NCBI GenBank assembly: GCA_015059375.1
Contig: SVAN01000005.1
Location: 1-56,026, forward strand
Length of the DNA stretch: 56,026 bases
Origin: Bacillota bacterium
GTDB taxonomy: Bacteria > Bacillota_I > Bacilli_A > RF39 > UBA660
Direction of reading: 5' to 3'
Under the pieces are notes generated by a model. That model had not been told where the DNA came from. It did not search any database and worked only from the letters and a program-made list of their open reading frames with translations. Numbering within the stretch: the stretch's first letter is position 1; each line of letters begins with the position of its first letter. The position numbers and the translations under genes are program-made. Of this stretch, positions 50,346 through 56,026 are shown one piece after another.

Positions 50346-52832
50346 ATGAACTTTATAAAAAAATTATTAGATACCGAATATAAAGAATTAAAGAGATTTG
50401 AAAAAATTGCTGATCAAATAGAAGCTCTATCTGATGAAATGACTAAACTAAAAGATGGAGATTTTAAGCAAAAGACTGAAGAATTTAAAAATAAAATTCA
50501 TAATGGTCTAAATATAGATGATGTATTGGTTCCGGCAATGGCATTAGCCCGTGAGGCTTGTTTTAGGGGAATTGGAGAAAAACCTTATCGTGTACAAATT
50601 CTTGGCGCGTTAGCTATTTATTTTGGTAATATTGCTGAAATGAAAACGGGAGAAGGTAAGACTTTAACGACTGTCTTGGCGGCATATGTAAATTCTCTTT
50701 CAGATAAGGGAGTACATGTTGTTACTACCAATGAATATTTATCACAAAGAAATGCAGAGTGGATGCGGCCAATATATGATCTTTTGGGAATTTCTGTTGG
50801 TATAAATCTTCGGGAGTTAAGCGCTAAAGAAAAAAGAGAAGTTTATAATTGTGATATAACTTATTCAACAAACAATGAAATAGGATTTGATTATTTACGA
50901 GATAATATGGTTGTAAGTAAGGAAGACCGTGTCCAAAGACCACTAAATTTTTGTATTATTGACGAGGTAGATTCAATTCTTATTGACGAAGCGCGTACAC
51001 CATTAATTATTAGTGGTGGGCAAATGCAATCTCAAAATTTATATTTAGATGCAAATCGAGCTGTTCAAAGGCTAAAAGAAGATGAAGATTACACTGTTGA
51101 TGCCAAAACAAAGAGTGTATCTTTAACTGAAGAAGGTAGCAAAAAAGTAGAAAAGATATTAAATATTAAAAATCTTTATGATATTGATAACTCCGTAATG
51201 GTGCACCATTTGAGCCAAGCTTTAAAGGCTAATTATGGATTTGCAAAAGATGTTGATTACGTTGTAGAAAATAATGAAGTTATTATAGTTGACCAGTTTA
51301 CGGGAAGACTTATGCATGGTCGACAATATTCTGAAGGCCTGCATCAAGCTATTGAAGCTAAGGAAGGCGTTAAAATCAATGCTGAAACCAGAACAATGGC
51401 AACAATTACATTTCAAAATCTTTTTAGAATGTACAATAAACTTTCTGGGATGACAGGAACGGCCAAGACTGAAGAAGAAGAATTTAGAAATATCTATAAT
51501 ATGTATGTTATAAGCATTCCAACAAATCGGCCAGTTGTTCGAGATGATATGGCTGACTTGGTTTATGCAAACATTAAAGGCAAATATAAAGCTATTATTC
51601 AAACTGTCAAAGCTATCCATGAAAAAGGCCAACCAATTTTAATTGGAACGATTTCTGTTGAATCAAACGAATATTTAAGTAATTTATTAAAAAAAGCTGG
51701 TTTAAAACACGAAGTATTAAATGCTAAAAATCACGAACGTGAGGCAGAGATTATAGCTAAAGCCGGCGAAAAAGGCGCTATTACTTTAGCTACTAATATG
51801 GCGGGCCGTGGAACAGACATTAAATTAGGAGAAGGTGTAAAAGAGCTAGGTGGTCTATGTGTTATTGGTACAGAAAGACATGAATCGAGAAGAATTGATA
51901 ATCAATTACGCGGTCGTGCCGGTCGTCAAGGGGATCCTGGCATGAGCCAATTTTTTGTTTCTTTTGAAGATGATTTAATGAGACGTTTTGGCACCGATAG
52001 AATCAGAACTATGCTAAAATCACTAGGCATTGAAGAAGAAATGGCCATTCGTAGTAAAACATTAACAAAGAGCATTGAGACTGCTCAAAAAAGAGTCGAG
52101 GGGAATAATTATGATATTCGTAAAAGTCTATTAGATTATGATAATGTTTTGAATGAGCAACGAGAAATCATCTATTCCCGTCGTAATGAGATCATTGACG
52201 AAGCTGATATTCACGAAAAAACTTTAGAAACTTTTAGAAATACAATTATTAATTTGTGTGATTCTCATCTAGCTCCTGAGGGATATTTAACAGATTTTGA
52301 TAAAAGTGAGATAGTTGAATATATAAATACAAATTATCTTAAAAACAAGAACTTAAAAGTTTCGGATATTAAAGATTTAAAGGATGAAGCGATAGCGGAA
52401 ACTATATCGAACATGGTAATAAAAGAATATGAAGAGAAAGTAAGAGATTTACCAGTACGAGTTGAGTTTGAAAAAGCTATATCATTAAGAGTAATTGATT
52501 CCAATTGGGTTGAACATATGAATACAATGGAACATCTTAAAGAAGGAATTGGATTGCGTAGTTATAGCCAAACCAGTCCGGTTCAAGCGTATACCATGGA
52601 AGGCTATGAACTTTTTGATAATTTATTAAATAAAATTGATTCTGATATAACGACTTTTTTGTTAAAAGCTGAGATTAGACAAAATGTTGAAAGAAAGCAA
52701 ACTCTAAAAGGACATGCTAACGATGGAAAAGAAACGGTAAAAAGTTCTCCAAAACGAGTTCAAAAAGTAGGCCGAAATGATGCTTGTCCATGTGGGAGCG
52801 GCCGTAAGTTCAAGCAATGTTGTGGAAAATAA
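50346..52832 (+). CDS. secA: Preprotein translocase subunit SecA
   Basis: EMKTGEGKT, DEVDSILIDEARTPLIIS, ATNMAGRGTDI, QLRGRAGRQGDPG and C-terminal SEC-C CPCGSGRKFKQCC motifs. Confidence 0.99.
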   Translation: MNFIKKLLDTEYKELKRFEKIADQIEALSDEMTKLKDGDFKQKTEEFKNKIHNGLNIDDVLVPAMALAREACFRGIGEKPYRVQILGALAIYFGNIAEMKTGEGKTLTTVLAAYVNSLSDKGVHVVTTNEYLSQRNAEWMRPIYDLLGISVGINLRELSAKEKREVYNCDITYSTNNEIGFDYLRDNMVVSKEDRVQRPLNFCIIDEVDSILIDEARTPLIISGGQMQSQNLYLDANRAVQRLKEDEDYTVDAKTKSVSLTEEGSKKVEKILNIKNLYDIDNSVMVHHLSQALKANYGFAKDVDYVVENNEVIIVDQFTGRLMHGRQYSEGLHQAIEAKEGVKINAETRTMATITFQNLFRMYNKLSGMTGTAKTEEEEFRNIYNMYVISIPTNRPVVRDDMADLVYANIKGKYKAIIQTVKAIHEKGQPILIGTISVESNEYLSNLLKKAGLKHEVLNAKNHEREAEIIAKAGEKGAITLATNMAGRGTDIKLGEGVKELGGLCVIGTERHESRRIDNQLRGRAGRQGDPGMSQFFVSFEDDLMRRFGTDRIRTMLKSLGIEEEMAIRSKTLTKSIETAQKRVEGNNYDIRKSLLDYDNVLNEQREIIYSRRNEIIDEADIHEKTLETFRNTIINLCDSHLAPEGYLTDFDKSEIVEYINTNYLKNKNLKVSDIKDLKDEAIAETISNMVIKEYEEKVRDLPVRVEFEKAISLRVIDSNWVEHMNTMEHLKEGIGLRSYSQTSPVQAYTMEGYELFDNLLNKIDSDITTFLLKAEIRQNVERKQTLKGHANDGKETVKSSPKRVQKVGRNDACPCGSGRKFKQCCGK
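52788..52832 (+). repeat. secA 3-prime tail copy 1 (in use); putative attL of cassette A
   Basis: CCA TGT GGG AGC GGC CGT AAG TTC AAG CAA TGT TGT GGA AAA TAA = PCGSGRKFKQCCGK*. Confidence 0.9.
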
Positions 52833-52874
52833 ACTCGGAAACCCAAGTAAATAAAGGGAAAAACCGAGTTTTTT
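52831..52874 (+). terminator. Terminator after secA tail copy 1
   Basis: AAACTCGG...CCGAGTTT stem with a T run. Confidence 0.7.
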
Positions 52875-52914
52875 CTATTACATAAAAATGGTAATTTTTA
52901 ACGAAATTTTCACC

Positions 52915-52934
52915 TTAGATAAGTTTTAGATAAG
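52915..52934 (+). repeat. Cassette A left tandem repeats (11-bp period)
   Basis: TTAGATAAG-TT-TTAGATAAG. Confidence 0.85.
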
Positions 52935-53053
52935 CTGAATATGATTTTATCGTATTTAATAAATATAAATTTAATCAAAATAGTATGATTTTTCCGTAAT
53001 ATATGTAAAAAATAAGTAAAAAAATATGTTATAATATGTATGGAGGTCAAATT

Positions 53054-53392
53054 ATGGAAGATAAAGAACTTATAGCTAATAAATTAGGTTTTGAGTCTAG
53101 TGATGAAATGGAAGCTTATTATGATTTATGTAGAGGTCATTTTGAAGACGATACAATAATGACTAAAGATTTATGTGAAAAACATGTTAAAGGTTATGGA
53201 TTAGACAAATTTTTGCATGTACCAAGAGAGGAAAGATTAGAAGGAAAAATTTACTATGATTTTGGTGGTTTAGTTGAATGTGTAAAATTAGGAGATGCAG
53301 AAAGGGCGCAATACCTTAAAAATCTAGTAGATTCTCAATTATCTGAATTAGACAAATGTTATACTGTTCAGGCTCAAAAATCAATGAAATAA
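53054..53392 (+). CDS. Hypothetical protein (cassette A cargo), 112 aa
   Basis: ORF with GGAGG RBS and extended -10 TGTTATAAT (53027-53035); no family recognised. Confidence 0.75.
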   Translation: MEDKELIANKLGFESSDEMEAYYDLCRGHFEDDTIMTKDLCEKHVKGYGLDKFLHVPREERLEGKIYYDFGGLVECVKLGDAERAQYLKNLVDSQLSELDKCYTVQAQKSMK

Positions 53393-53405
53393 AAAAGCAG
53401 TTTTT

Positions 53406-53426
53406 TTAGATAAGTTAATAGGTAAG
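53406..53426 (+). repeat. Cassette A right tandem repeats (12-bp period)
   Basis: TTAGATAAG-TTA-ATAGGTAAG, 13 nt after the cargo stop. Confidence 0.8.
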
Positions 53427-53516
53427 TTGTATGAATTTAGTTGCAATTTATTACAAATATTAAAGAATATAATGCAAAATTAAAGCAATTTGTTACATAA
53501 AAATTGCAATATGTTA

Positions 53517-53561
53517 CCATGTGGCTCTGGTAAAAAATATAAACAATGTTGTGGCAAATAG
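53517..53561 (+). repeat. secA 3-prime tail copy 2 (orphan); A/B junction
   Basis: CCA TGT GGC TCT GGT AAA AAA TAT AAA CAA TGT TGT GGC AAA TAG = PCGSGKKYKQCCGK*; in-frame stop upstream at 53481. Confidence 0.9.
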
Positions 53562-53567
53562 CCTCGT

Positions 53568-53602
53568 AAGCCTAGGAAATATAAGGATTCCTGGGCTTTT
53601 TG
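53568..53602 (+). terminator. Terminator after secA tail copy 2
   Basis: AAGCCTAGGAA...TTCCTGGGCTT followed by a T run. Confidence 0.7.
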
Positions 53603-53640
53603 TTTTTTAAAAAAGTTGTCTTTTTCTTCAAAAATAGCCT

Positions 53641-53678
53641 CTACATACGTTTTACATACGTATATAAAACGTATGTAG
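53641..53678 (+). repeat. Cassette B left repeats (11-bp period) plus an inverted third copy
   Basis: CTACATACG-TT-TTACATACG; 14-bp inverted repeat CTACATACGTTTTA (53641) / TAAAACGTATGTAG (53665). Confidence 0.85.
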
Positions 53679-53798
53679 GCAATATTTCAAGATAAACAAT
53701 CTCTTTATTTATAAGGATTTATGAGTAAAGTGATCCGTGTCCTTTTAGTTCTTTACAAATGCTATAAAAATTCATGATATAATATTAATGAGAAAAAG

Positions 53799-54560
53799 GT
53801 GTATTTTGTGTCAAATTTTACTAATGAATTTTTAAAATATTATTTAACAAATCCACTAATAATAACAATATTAATATTAGGTTTAATATCAGCAATTTTT
53901 TATAAACAGATAGTTGGATGGTTTGGAGAGCATTGGACTAAAAAAGCTTTAAGAAAATTACCTAAAGCTAAATATAAAATTATAAATAATTTGTTTTTAT
54001 CAGTTAATGGATTGACTCATCAAATAGATCATGTAGTAGTTTCTCCATATGGAATATTTTCTATAGAAACAAAACAATATAATGGTTACATAACAGGAAG
54101 TAAATATGATAAAAACTGGGTAAGACATGCTGGAAAAAATAAATACTATTATATGAATCCTATTAGACAAAATTATGGACATTGCAAAGCATTAGCTGAA
54201 TTATTAAATATAGACGAATCAAAATTATATAATATAGTATGTATTCCAAGTAATGCAAAATTAAAAATAGAACATGACGGGGAACTTGTAAGATATGATA
54301 CTATTGTTAATAAAATAAAATCTTATAATGAAGAAATAATTAATAATGTTAGTGAATTATATGATAAATTATTAAAGAGTAATGTGAAAGACAAAAAAAT
54401 AAAAAAAGAACATATTGAAAACATAAAAACTAATATTGAGAAAAAAGATATTAGTAAATGTCCTAAATGTGGAGGAACGTTAGTTGAACGTGAAAGTAAG
54501 TATGGGAAATTTATTGGATGTGCTAATTATCCTAGGTGTAAGTACACTCAAAAAAAATAA
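53799..54560 (+). CDS. NERD-domain protein with N-terminal TM helix and C-terminal topoisomerase-type C4 zinc finger (cassette B cargo)
   Basis: G.FGE, QIDHVVV...GIF.IETK NERD motifs; CPKCGG.L..R...YG.F.GC.NYP.C; extended -10 TGATATAAT at 53775. Confidence 0.88.
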   Translation: MYFVSNFTNEFLKYYLTNPLIITILILGLISAIFYKQIVGWFGEHWTKKALRKLPKAKYKIINNLFLSVNGLTHQIDHVVVSPYGIFSIETKQYNGYITGSKYDKNWVRHAGKNKYYYMNPIRQNYGHCKALAELLNIDESKLYNIVCIPSNAKLKIEHDGELVRYDTIVNKIKSYNEEIINNVSELYDKLLKSNVKDKKIKKEHIENIKTNIEKKDISKCPKCGGTLVERESKYGKFIGCANYPRCKYTQKK

Positions 54561-54563
54561 ATT

Positions 54564-54584
54564 CTACATACGATTTTACATACA
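54564..54584 (+). repeat. Cassette B right tandem repeats (12-bp period)
   Basis: CTACATACG-ATT-TTACATACA, 3 nt after the cargo stop. Confidence 0.85.
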
Positions 54585-54691
54585 AATTGGTAGCGTTCTC
54601 GAGTGCTCTCAAACTTTCTCAAAAGTCCATTTATGAGGTTTTATAAAGGTTTTAAAGCCTACTAAAGTCTCGAAAGTTCGAAAAATCGCAT

Positions 54692-54736
54692 CCATGTGGC
54701 AACGGTAAGAAATACAAGCGATGTTGTGGAAAGTAA
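54692..54736 (+). repeat. secA 3-prime tail copy 3 (orphan); B/C junction
   Basis: CCA TGT GGC AAC GGT AAG AAA TAC AAG CGA TGT TGT GGA AAG TAA = PCGNGKKYKRCCGK*; in-frame stop upstream at 54653. Confidence 0.9.
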
Positions 54737-54791
54737 GTAATATCAAGGCTTTTAGAAGATTGATGAATGAAGAAAAGTGAAAAATCGTGAA

Positions 54792-54811
54792 TTAGATACC
54801 ATTTAGATACC
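54792..54811 (+). repeat. Cassette C left tandem repeats (11-bp period)
   Basis: TTAGATACC-AT-TTAGATACC. Confidence 0.85.
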
Positions 54812-54826
54812 CTAAAATAGTAAATG

Positions 54827-54851
54827 AAAAGACCCAAATGGGTCTTTTTTT
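54827..54851 (+). terminator. Terminator-like hairpin ahead of the cassette C promoter
   Basis: AAAAGACCC-AAAT-GGGTCTTTT-TTT, followed by TGATATAAT (54851-54859). Confidence 0.6.
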
Positions 54852-54880
54852 GATATAATGAATATAAAGGTGTAATGTAA

Positions 54881-55624
54881 ATGAATGGGTATATTAATTT
54901 AGATGAAAAGAACATTGATGAAGAACATATTTGTTGTGCAATTGGAGATCCTAAACATCAAGACGGTGTAGATAAAAAGAAAGAATGGATTAAAAATAAA
55001 TTAAAAGATGGGCATGTATTTAGAAAACTAAATACTAGAGGTAAAATCTTTATTGAATACGAACCAATAGAAACAGCTTGGGTTCCTATCAATGGTAAAA
55101 ACTATATGCATATTTATTGTTTATGGGTAGCAGGCAGTTTTAAAGGAAAAGGTATTGGTAAAGAATTATTAGAATATGCTATTGAAGATGCTAAAAAGAA
55201 AAAAATGAGTGGAGTTTGTACAATAGTTACACAAAAGAAAAAACCATTTATTGGAGATAAGAAATTCTTTGAACATTATGGATTTAAGGTAATAGATACA
55301 ATTAACGACTATGAATTAATGGCATTACAATTTGATGATAAAGAAACTCCTGAGTTTAGTGATACAGCACGTAAGATGGAAATCGAAAGTCAAGATTTCA
55401 CTATTTATTATTCAAATGAATGTCCCTATGTAGAATATGAAGTAAAGGAATTATCTGGCTATGCTAAAGATAAAGGAATTGAATTGAACTTCATAAAAAT
55501 AGATTCGTTAGAGAAAGCAAAAAATGCACCATGCGTATTTAACAACTGGGCTAACTTTTATAAAGGAAAATTTGTTTCAAATACAATCTTAAACGCTAAT
55601 GCATTTGAAAAATTATTAAAATAG
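54881..55624 (+). CDS. YoaP-domain GNAT family N-acetyltransferase (cassette C cargo)
   Basis: NI..EHICCAI, GK.FIEY.P.E.AW, CLWV.GSFKGKGIG, QCPY-like ECPY and A.NAP...N.WA.FY.GKF motifs. Confidence 0.85.
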   Translation: MNGYINLDEKNIDEEHICCAIGDPKHQDGVDKKKEWIKNKLKDGHVFRKLNTRGKIFIEYEPIETAWVPINGKNYMHIYCLWVAGSFKGKGIGKELLEYAIEDAKKKKMSGVCTIVTQKKKPFIGDKKFFEHYGFKVIDTINDYELMALQFDDKETPEFSDTARKMEIESQDFTIYYSNECPYVEYEVKELSGYAKDKGIELNFIKIDSLEKAKNAPCVFNNWANFYKGKFVSNTILNANAFEKLLK

Positions 55625-55628
55625 ATTA

Positions 55629-55682
55629 TTAGATACCTTTTTGGATACCTTCCGGTGAGTATTTAAAAGATATCTAGATACC
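55629..55682 (+). repeat. Cassette C right repeats (12-bp period) plus a third copy
   Basis: TTAGATACC-TTT-TTGGATACC, 4 nt after the cargo stop; CTAGATACC at 55674. Confidence 0.8.
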
Positions 55683-55904
55683 TTTTTTTGAAGTGAAAAT
55701 ACAAAAATTTTGTATCGTTAAAAATGCAAGGTTTCTTTTATTTATAAAGAATTACGAAGATTTTGATGATAAAAAAAGATTAAATTGTGTCCACTGCCAT
55801 TGATATTTTAAACCCTCATTTTTTTAATAAAAACACGTAGTTTTATGTTATAATAAATAATGAAAGAGGAGATAAAAAGGTGGATATTTATTAGGAGGGA
55901 AAAT

Positions 55905-56026
55905 ATGATAAGTACAAGTAGTCATAATGATTGGCAGTCAGATAAATATAGAACCTATTCTATCTCTGGTAATCGCGGAAAAGATGCTAACTATCAAGGT
56001 AAATGTTATCCTGAATTAGCACCTAA
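55905..56026 (+). CDS. Partial CDS, possibly DUF488-related, truncated by the window end
   Basis: AGGAGG RBS, extended -10 TGTTATAAT (55846-55854); MISTSSHNDWQSDKYRTYSISGNRGKDANYQGKCYPELAP. Confidence 0.5.
   Translation, partial: MISTSSHNDWQSDKYRTYSISGNRGKDANYQGKCYPELAP

Follow-up and report, generated by a model that had tools for sequence, protein, structure and literature searches.

Rows of integrase-less, often one-gene units at the 3′ end of secA in uncultured gut Bacilli

The stretch of DNA analysed here (the window) is the whole of contig C3 (SVAN01000005.1, 56,026 nucleotides) of a Bacillota bacterium assembly (GCA_015059375.1; 1.01 Mb, 72% complete, about 29% G+C), and downstream of secA it carries a row of short units separated by copies of the secA 3′ end, which we call tails. 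We consider it likely that these units are integrase-less cassettes flanked by attachment (att) sites, resembling cis-mobilizable elements (CIMEs), which use the integrases of phages and other elements in trans. In this model the last 14 codons of secA would serve as attB for lambda-type, arm-binding tyrosine integrases of temperate phages and smaller integrative elements, and the attP of each such element would carry a working replacement tail, usually with a terminator, so that insertion would keep SecA intact and push the previous tail downstream as an orphan. The window would then hold four integrase-less derivatives in tandem: A, B, C and the tail-less D. Below, G-numbers denote genomes (G000 being the source genome), L-numbers the loci or contigs that were fetched, and C-numbers the contigs of the source assembly.

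Tails and units in the window

The secA gene occupies positions 50346..52832 of the forward strand, on which all the window features described below also lie, and its open reading frame (ORF) encodes 828 aa, of which the last 14 codons and the stop are supplied by unit A. An earlier note on this DNA had reported that the final 45 bp of secA occur three times, copies 2 and 3 being orphans with no upstream ORF, and the coordinates, the spacing and the intact SEC-C tails were all verified. Specifically, tail 1 (52788..52832), the one in use, forms the left junction (attL core) of unit A; tail 2 (53517..53561), an orphan whose body belongs to unit B, marks the A/B junction; and tail 3 (54692..54736), also an orphan, marks the B/C junction, the spacings being 729 bp and 1175 bp. 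All three copies start with CCATGTGG and encode PCGSGRKFKQCCGK, PCGSGKKYKQCCGK and PCGNGKKYKRCCGK, respectively, each followed by a stop codon, with copy 2 67% and copy 3 78% identical to copy 1. No further copy was found anywhere in the 1.01-Mb source assembly. Moreover, a weight matrix made from strict tails gave true tails 48-74 bits, whereas 348 kb of shuffled sequence reached no more than -13 bits, and the threefold recurrence is far beyond chance.

In the codon analysis, which took in 45 functional and 75 orphan tails, the variation of both groups was concentrated at third codon positions, with entropies at codon positions 1/2/3 of 0.18/0.13/1.13 in functional tails and 0.35/0.25/1.09 in orphans, and the cysteine pattern and stop were kept in 69 of the 75 orphans. 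Judged by their sequence, the tails were once coding sequence. The first codon was CCN in all 45 functional tails and a non-proline codon in 27 of the 75 orphans; since it is fixed in the former and free in the latter, the left edge of the shared segment is the Pro codon, at which the similarity to secA had already been seen to stop. This freedom of the first codon in orphans, never seen in functional tails, also speaks against the view that small genes translated on their own end in the orphans, or that the orphans regulate the cargo genes, an explanation to which we give almost no probability. The open frame and stop of the 69 orphans would fit it, as would a 16-codon ATG mini-frame that ends in tail 2. 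However, that mini-frame is the only upstream frame there and has no ribosome-binding site, orphans 2 and 3 stand outside any gene with an in-frame stop 11-12 codons upstream and no ribosome-binding site ahead, and orphans precede a terminator rather than a cargo gene. Their intact frames are explained if each was, or may become, a working secA end.

Each interval had been described as holding repeats on the left and right and one cargo gene with its own extended -10 promoter, and both the repeats, which are doublets of a short motif (the arms), and the promoter boxes could be located exactly. A general promoter scan was uninformative in this AT-rich DNA (24 matches vs 23.6 expected), and we relied instead on exact TGnTATAAT boxes, one of which lies ahead of each cargo gene (53027, 53775, 54851 and 55846). 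Unit A starts with a terminator consisting of a hairpin and T-run (52831..52875; fold -12.2 kcal/mol, z = -2.5), followed by a left arm in which TTAGATAAG occurs twice, 11 bp apart (52915..52936; copies at 52915 and 52926), and by the box TGTTATAAT (53027..53035). Its cargo gene (53054..53392, 112 aa) belongs to no known family and matched nothing in Pfam or PADLOC, and it is followed by a right arm with TTAGATAAG and then TAGGTAAG, 12 bp apart (53406..53429), and an 87-bp spacer. Unit B is built in the same order, with a hairpin and T-run terminator (53568..53605; fold -15.4 kcal/mol) whose stem varies on both sides in related units, a left arm with two copies of TACATACG 11 bp apart plus one inverted copy (53641..53680; copies at 53642 and 53653), invariant in five units from four genera, and the box TGATATAAT (53775..53783). 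Its cargo gene (53799..54560, 253 aa) encodes NERD and Zn_ribbon_Top1 domains (Pfam E-values 3.6e-28 and 1.3e-15) and shows a weak match to the PglW N-terminus. The right arm (54564..54610) contains TACATACG at 54565, then TACATACA 12 bp apart from it, and then the motif CGAGTGCTCTC; homologous right arms are present in G396 and G026, and the CGAGTGCTCTC motif also occurs in a prophage attR. Neither A nor B encodes a recombinase, as had been claimed for both.

Unit C has a left arm of two TTAGATACC copies 11 bp apart (54792..54812; copies at 54792 and 54803, with a third at 55629), a TGATATAAT box at 54851 and a cargo gene (54881..55624, 247 aa) for a GNAT acetyltransferase with a YoaP-like C-terminus. 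The block that follows (55625..55855) combines an arm with the left module of a fourth unit, D, carrying TAGATACC at 55630 and 55675, GGATACC at 55643 and TGTTATAAT at 55846. It lacks the expected spacer, tail and terminator, and is 73-80% identical to left modules in G007, G015, G062 and G252. Cargo gene D (217 aa, DUF488-N3a) occupies 55905..56026 in the window and ends at position 659 of contig C27. The arm classes are thus TTAGATAAG for A, TACATACG for B and TTAGATACC for C and D; cargo genes A, D and E had no homologues among the fetched loci. Gene C is 88% identical at the nucleotide level to a cassette gene in G252, a different genus, in which a spacer, a tail and a terminator separate gene C from the block that adjoins it directly in the window. 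Compared with this order, the window has lost one junction (C/D), probably when TAGATACC repeats in adjacent arms recombined. Arm-to-arm fusion also puts cassettes directly against the integrase gene in G033 and G376, and could be a route by which phages acquire cassettes.

Two further motifs accompany the arms (window 53700-53720 and 55735-55760; L019:3605-3630). A CTTTATTTATAAGG-like motif recurs between doublet and promoter in left modules of differing arm classes, and CCCGAGTGCTC recurs in right-arm spacers, including that of a prophage attR. Both may be candidate sites for accessory bending or excision proteins.

The row does not end with the window. The last 127 bp of C3 are the first 127 bp of contig C27, an overlap absent from any third contig, and prfB (with its frameshift site) begins at C27:2210, 2.1 kb beyond the window end. 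Contig C3 ends inside the island, and the distance from secA to prfB in the source genome is 5.3 kb. The prediction that the island runs past the window was therefore borne out, C27 continuing it to prfB, and prfB, which had been called absent, is indeed missing from the window but is present further on once the contigs are joined. The expectation that an extension rightwards would show more SEC-C tails and a tyrosine recombinase failed: up to prfB, C27 has neither a fourth tail nor a recombinase gene, and PF00589 had zero matches on C3 downstream of secA or on C27 before prfB. On C27 the remainder of gene D is followed by a Cys-rich 45-aa ORF and an Rce1-like membrane protease of the CAAX protease family (C27:6-1839 for the three), and then by prfB. 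The Rce1-like protein may be native or may represent another decayed unit; the one homologue that the fetched loci contain is a partial match (48%) where L054 starts, next to the tail row of G396.

Rows and integrases in related genomes

The tail pattern was matched in 334 of the 401 genomes of the family, with at least two matches in about 127 (table count) and eight in one genome, and about a third of related species carry such rows. The related records come from the gut of human, ruminant, deer and rabbit and were deposited as 'Bacilli bacterium', 'Mollicutes bacterium', 'uncultured Tenericutes bacterium', 'uncultured Erysipelotrichaceae' and Clostridium sp. CAG:914; the lineage is probably the GTDB order RF39. 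When 20 further loci were re-scanned, no tail was found on the opposite strand, and the row started at the secA end wherever secA was present. Many tails in related assemblies lie at or near contig ends, as would be seen if a row were an assembly chimera joining the secA ends of co-occurring strains or species. That rows are such artefacts is nevertheless extremely improbable: they occur inside long contigs of many independent projects, for instance with three tails from secA to prfB on a contig of 416 kb and five behind secA on one of 273 kb; a Hi-C contig of 1.19 Mb has an integrase-bearing element at the site, and two tail-integrase loci are found on CP091739.1, a complete chromosome; each unit has its own cargo and arm class; and the join between C3 and C27 is unique.

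Sixty-six tail-to-tail units were cut from relatives, ranging from 0.26 to 5.5 kb with up to eight genes each, and nearly all of their ORFs share the orientation of secA. Their architecture is regular: a tail, usually a terminator, the left doublet, a promoter, the cargo, the right doublet (of the same 9-mer) and a spacer of ~100 bp. The left 9-mer doublet has a period of 11 bp in 37 of 41 units and begins ~126 bp past the tail start, the right one has a period of 12 bp in 33 of 51 units and begins ~129 bp ahead of the next tail, and doublets are present on both sides in 37 of the 66 units. If a unit were circularised, its two doublets would flank the tail like the arm-type sites around a lambda-type attP core. 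Recurring arm classes include TTAGATAAG, TTAGATACC, TTAGATACG, TTAGATACA, TACATACG, TGTTTGTAA and TGTCCACA, among others. Apart from these, one unit of 719-729 bp (L052 unit 2 and L053 unit 1, in G071 and G189) ends in a copy of ~50 codons of the secA 3′ end, instead of 14, before an LCGSG... tail; it has no recognisable arm doublets and may represent a different kind of insertion or duplication.

The cargo is diverse, 126 unit ORFs falling into 104 clusters. In a Pfam tally of 124 cargo ORFs, GNAT acetyltransferases were the commonest (13 of 124), followed by NTPase_I-T, GH10, DNA methylases, YunG, RhuM, NUDIX and AAA_21, while MetRS, AsnA and a class II tRNA-synthetase were found as single cargo genes.

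Comparing the interval between secA and prfB across relatives had been proposed as a way of finding empty sites and varying cassette content. Varying cargo was found, the relatives showing intervals of different length and gene content; an empty site was not found among the fetched loci of the family, the shortest interval, 1.3 kb, being that of G042, from another family. Within the genus, the 5.3 kb of the source genome compare with about 8-10 kb, holding other genes, in G013 and G014. In these two (L033 and L034) the 8-10 kb consist of co-oriented genes from secA to prfB, partly common to both, with no orphan tails and no arm doublets, which indicates that some of the DNA between the two genes cannot, or can no longer, be recognised as cassettes.

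The proposal of a secA-targeting family of elements was supported by two families of tyrosine integrases that adjoin the tail in relatives, prophages included. The first, of 423 aa, has Arm-DNA-bind_4, SAM_3 (Phage_int_SAM_3) and Phage_integrase domains and TGTTTGTAA arms, and exists in two forms that are ~45% identical: form 1 starts ~270 bp past the secA tail and reads away from it, and form 2, with an HTH_17 excisionase-like gene upstream, ends ~300 bp before a tail. In a search that covered the genomes of 185,579 species, 22 of the 26 loci found had a tail, 17 in the form-1 arrangement and four in the form-2 arrangement. Both forms occur together in one genome at L091 and L086 (CP091739.1, ~43 kb apart) and at L078 and L083 (CAKOYD010000006.1, ~38 kb apart), as well as in G015, UMGS1402 and HGM10772. 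In these pairs one form directly follows the secA tail, the other, with the excisionase-like gene, lies tens of kb downstream before another tail, and TGTTTGTAA arm repeats stand at both ends, which may reflect one large two-integrase element or two elements in tandem. Units of the TGTCCACA class (3-4 kb, next to secA) have a split integrase, with an arm/SAM part of 170-173 aa and a catalytic part of 207-231 aa; three genera share the position of the split (G093, G122 and G407; L062:4440-5671, L050:4023-5260 and L058 unit 0), and the split gene could be an inherited pseudogene or a two-part or recoded gene.

The second family, of 376-395 aa (G353, G363 and G153), shows a secA tail, ~80 bp, a TTAGATAAG or TTAGATACC doublet and then the integrase on the opposite strand; Pfam detects only its SAM-like and catalytic domains. 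The G353 element is a prophage, since it encodes a CI-like repressor and a large terminase subunit; a PHROG 'integrase' resembling a serine recombinase lies inside this prophage and not at the junction. The right ends of the G153 and G353 prophages are not on their contigs. Both junctions are, however, present in a prophage on an IMG/VR contig of 40,114 bp (CheckV 100% complete): its left junction runs from the secA end through a tail and a TTAGATACC doublet with 11-bp spacing to the integrase, and its right junction from a TTAGATACC doublet with 12-bp spacing through the CCCGAGTGCTC motif and ~110 bp to a tail. Elements need not be this large, G376 containing an 11-kb element with both tails, TTAGAACC arms, an integrase, a helix-turn-helix regulator and a replisome-organiser gene.

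Distant members of the second family are found away from secA (G000 C21:5338-6760; L104-L121), with a doublet 11-12 bp apart directly after the integrase stop, for example CGTACCTAAA, TGTTACATAA or AATAAGTGGT, which looks like a general signature for their att sites. The integrases of the source genome itself were considered as the mobilising enzyme and rejected, being only 24-40% identical to the secA-associated families.

Movement of units between genera

The window units share their ends with these phages. The TTAGATAAG doublet of unit A also adjoins the integrase in the G353 and G153 prophages, and the TTAGATACC doublet of unit C is also found in the attL of the complete IMG/VR prophage. 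Moreover, the tail and terminator of unit A are identical to the attL of the G153 prophage, from another genus, at 106 of 111 positions (95.5%), including all 66 nt after the secA stop, with the TTAGATAAG doublet next in both, and this is far above the identity of the two secA genes (73.8% overall, 72% in the last 300 nt); the working SecA C-terminus in the window is therefore derived from an element. Since the units share arm motifs with integrase-bearing elements, mobilisation in trans is mechanistically plausible.

The same ends also enclose different genes. In L244, a JGI contig that came from a second metagenome scan, unit A-type arms surround an unrelated 167-aa ORF, the left module of unit A being 86% identical there through the -10 box to the GGAGG ribosome-binding site, and window positions 53404-53560 (right arm, spacer and tail 2) 89% identical. 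Similarly, the left module of unit B up to and including TGATATAAT is kept in five units from four genera, with unrelated ORFs behind it. With the same modules ahead of unrelated ORFs, the arms behave as conserved carriers in which only the ORFs differ.

Whole units are shared as well, between genomes with distant secA genes. A 962-bp unit is 100% identical in G231 and G064 (secA 69.8%), and units are 95.8% identical in G071 and G189 (secA 73.8%) and 95.7% identical in G006 and G122 (secA 70.4%). In the first pair the identity extends from the tail start to 14 nt inside the next tail, at CCTTGTGGAAGTGG. Conversely, G007 and G015, whose secA genes are 96.8% identical, have in common the integrase-proximal arm and a 257-aa cassette and are unrelated from the next tail start on. 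Their divergence at a tail, with whole units differing, means that relatives do not carry one fixed arrangement, an outcome in line with the earlier note, and these comparisons support small units that are discrete and move horizontally. From two right junctions and one left junction, the strand exchange would fall within the first ~14 nt of the tail, for which CCWTGTGGNNNNGG is the putative sequence. In other pairs the tail bodies are unlinked from the left arms, so that the crossover is bracketed rather than fixed, and gene conversion or homologous recombination also shapes the rows.

Could homologous recombination be the main process? The cassettes might spread mostly by recombination after DNA uptake, with tails and arms providing the homology, and site-specific recombination might be confined to the parent phages. 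[quoted passage not shown] We regard this as unlikely because the left breakpoint of the 100% identical pair is exactly at the tail start, where the only homology upstream is a secA gene of 70% identity, because its right breakpoint is 14 nt into the next tail, and because G007 and G015 diverge at a tail start. Nor does homologous recombination require arm doublets at a fixed spacing on both sides.

A different alternative is that the units are inert scars left in place by deleted prophages or integrative elements, inherited vertically and never moving as units. Integrase fragments or split integrases in some units, decay of tails in some rows, the deleted C/D tail in the window and the lack of a cognate integrase in the source genome are what scars would produce. 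Against it stand the units that are 96-100% identical behind secA genes of 70-74% identity with breakpoints at the tails, the arm modules, promoter and ribosome-binding site included, that carry unrelated ORFs in at least four genera, and the fact that most of the 66 units keep both arms at a constant distance. In-place decay accounts for the origin of units and not for their spread, and as a full explanation we find it improbable.

We return to CIME-like cassettes that depend on integrases supplied in trans as the best reading. Several observations count against this reading. All the genomes compared are metagenome assemblies. The source genome, at 72% completeness, has no integrase of either secA-associated family, and its closest own integrase (C21, 40% identical) is accompanied by CGTACCTAAA doublets and uses another site. 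A metagenome scan with the secA end for other strains of the source species gave no match. The tail body is unlinked from its own left arm in two of the three pairs of near-identical units, and again where unit A is set against L244. Finally, the loss of the C/D junction tail, together with the absence of a final tail before prfB, implies that part of the row is already immobile. That the units of the source genome are still able to move is accordingly a weaker proposition, which we put at somewhat better than even.

As for the process itself, units would be excised and inserted by the cognate Int, with an excisionase, which a phage or element, resident or incoming, would provide in trans. To reach other cells they might excise together with an adjacent element (accretion-mobilisation) or be taken up by transformation, and recombination between arm repeats would fuse or reshuffle them. 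That the newest cassette lies next to secA is only the simplest model, since internal changes and arm-to-arm deletions also occur, including at C/D in the window.

Known systems and significance

In Streptococcus thermophilus, CIMEs and the ICEs ICESt1 and ICESt3 show site-specific tandem accretion at the fda 3′ end. The CIME category is defined in ICEberg 2.0 (PMC6323972). The secA rows resemble this system in having integrase-less units between attL- and attR-type sites, a tyrosine integrase with the 3′ end of a housekeeping gene as its target, and tandem stacking with or beside integrase-bearing relatives whose integrase would be expected to mobilise them. In the window, the tails at 52788, 53517 and 54692 bound A and B with the doublets inside the ends; Pfam found no integrase, excisionase or transfer genes in A, B and C, with no PF00589 at the locus; and partners with integrases and the same att site and arms (TTAGATAAG or TTAGATACC) are available in G353, G153, G363 and the IMG/VR prophage. 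The differences are the target, which is the SEC-C zinc-finger tail of secA; the partners, which include temperate phages; the units, often a single gene (0.7-1.5 kb) set in a conserved arm module that has a terminator and promoter of its own; and the extent, with up to eight tails and about a third of the species in a large family. Mobilisation of the secA units is predicted. The process is already known in kind, namely integration at a 3′ end that the element replaces, accretion in tandem, and att-flanked derivatives without an integrase, and what is new relative to known accretion is the secA target, the one-gene size and the promoter-bearing arms.

Lambda Int and Tn916 Int are arm-binding tyrosine integrases that act on a core flanked by arm-type sites. 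Likewise, the secA core has arm repeats on both sides, ~125 bp away; the associated 423-aa recombinases have an N-terminal arm-binding domain (Arm-DNA-bind_4), and in one element an excisionase-like HTH_17 gene lies upstream of the integrase. In contrast to those systems, the secA arms consist of simple doublets with a spacing of 11 bp (left) or 12 bp (right), whose binding by the integrase is predicted, and they exist in several 'dialects' (TTAGATAAG, TTAGATACC, TACATACG, TGTTTGTAA and TGTCCACA) for one core target.

Tycheposons build islands at Prochlorococcus tRNA genes and mostly keep their integrase and replication modules (bioRxiv 10.1101/2020.12.28.424599). They share with the secA rows repeated integration at a single site, with older elements pushed inward and partial target copies at the boundaries, and the delivery of niche genes by small cargo elements to a streamlined genome with few other routes of gene transfer. 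The secA rows differ in using a protein-coding tail instead of a tRNA gene, and in that most of their units have lost every mobility gene and kept complete arms. In the phage-ICE tandems (PMC13651849), phage integrases reportedly act on composite tandems at a shared att site with homologous recombination as back-up; there, a phage is joined to a conjugative element, whereas in the secA rows phages or other elements lie beside one-gene cassettes. No conjugation machinery was seen in the window.

Integrons consist of IntI, attI, the Pc promoter and promoter-less cassettes with folded single-stranded attC sites. The label 'integron-like', used in the earlier note, fits the outcome, since the secA rows, like integrons including the sedentary chromosomal ones, line up cassettes in one orientation, most of them with a single gene and with widely differing functions, GNAT being the commonest annotated. 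It does not fit the mechanism: the secA rows have no IntI, attI, Pc promoter or attC and use duplex phage-type att sites with 45-bp coding junctions, no integrase is present at the locus and those of relatives are phage-type with arm domains, each cassette has its own TGnTATAAT promoter, and mostly a terminator follows the tail, as at the start of A and B. SCC (staphylococcal cassette chromosome) and pseudo-SCC elements, which have Ccr large serine recombinases and span tens of kb at the 3′ end of rlmH (orfX) in staphylococci, also form tandem cassettes at the 3′ end of a conserved gene, some without recombinase, with the integration-site sequence repeated at each junction. The secA rows instead use tyrosine integrases with arm sites, at secA, and have units as small as 0.7 kb.

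A bolder proposal, which we put forward tentatively and hold to be possible rather than probable, is that the secA rows are a phage-built counterpart of the integron, a shared cassette library in which arms act as expression vectors, the integrases of phages and other elements excise, insert and reorder cassettes in trans, and phages carry them between genera. If so, phages would take up neighbouring cassettes by using the outer tail at excision or by arm-to-arm fusion, and single ORFs would be swapped into arm modules that provide the secA tail, arm sites, promoter, ribosome-binding site and usually terminator.

No paper describing secA as an attachment or integration site was found by full-text literature searching, and the site appears to be an undescribed route of gene flow for these uncultured small-genome gut Bacilli. 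The end of secA is a widespread and precisely bounded hot spot through which accessory genes, including those for GNAT acetyltransferases, DNA methylases, nuclease-like proteins and even aminoacyl-tRNA synthetases, build up and are exchanged between genera. The zinc-binding C-terminus of the essential SecA protein, and the terminator behind it, would then be routinely element-derived and swappable, and the orthogonal integrase/arm-site 'dialects' on one core target may offer a natural parts list. The tail rows also explain why assemblies of these organisms frequently break right after secA. At the opposite end of C3, the first 100 bp recur at the starts of contigs C8 and C12, indicating that a repeat breaks the assembly there.

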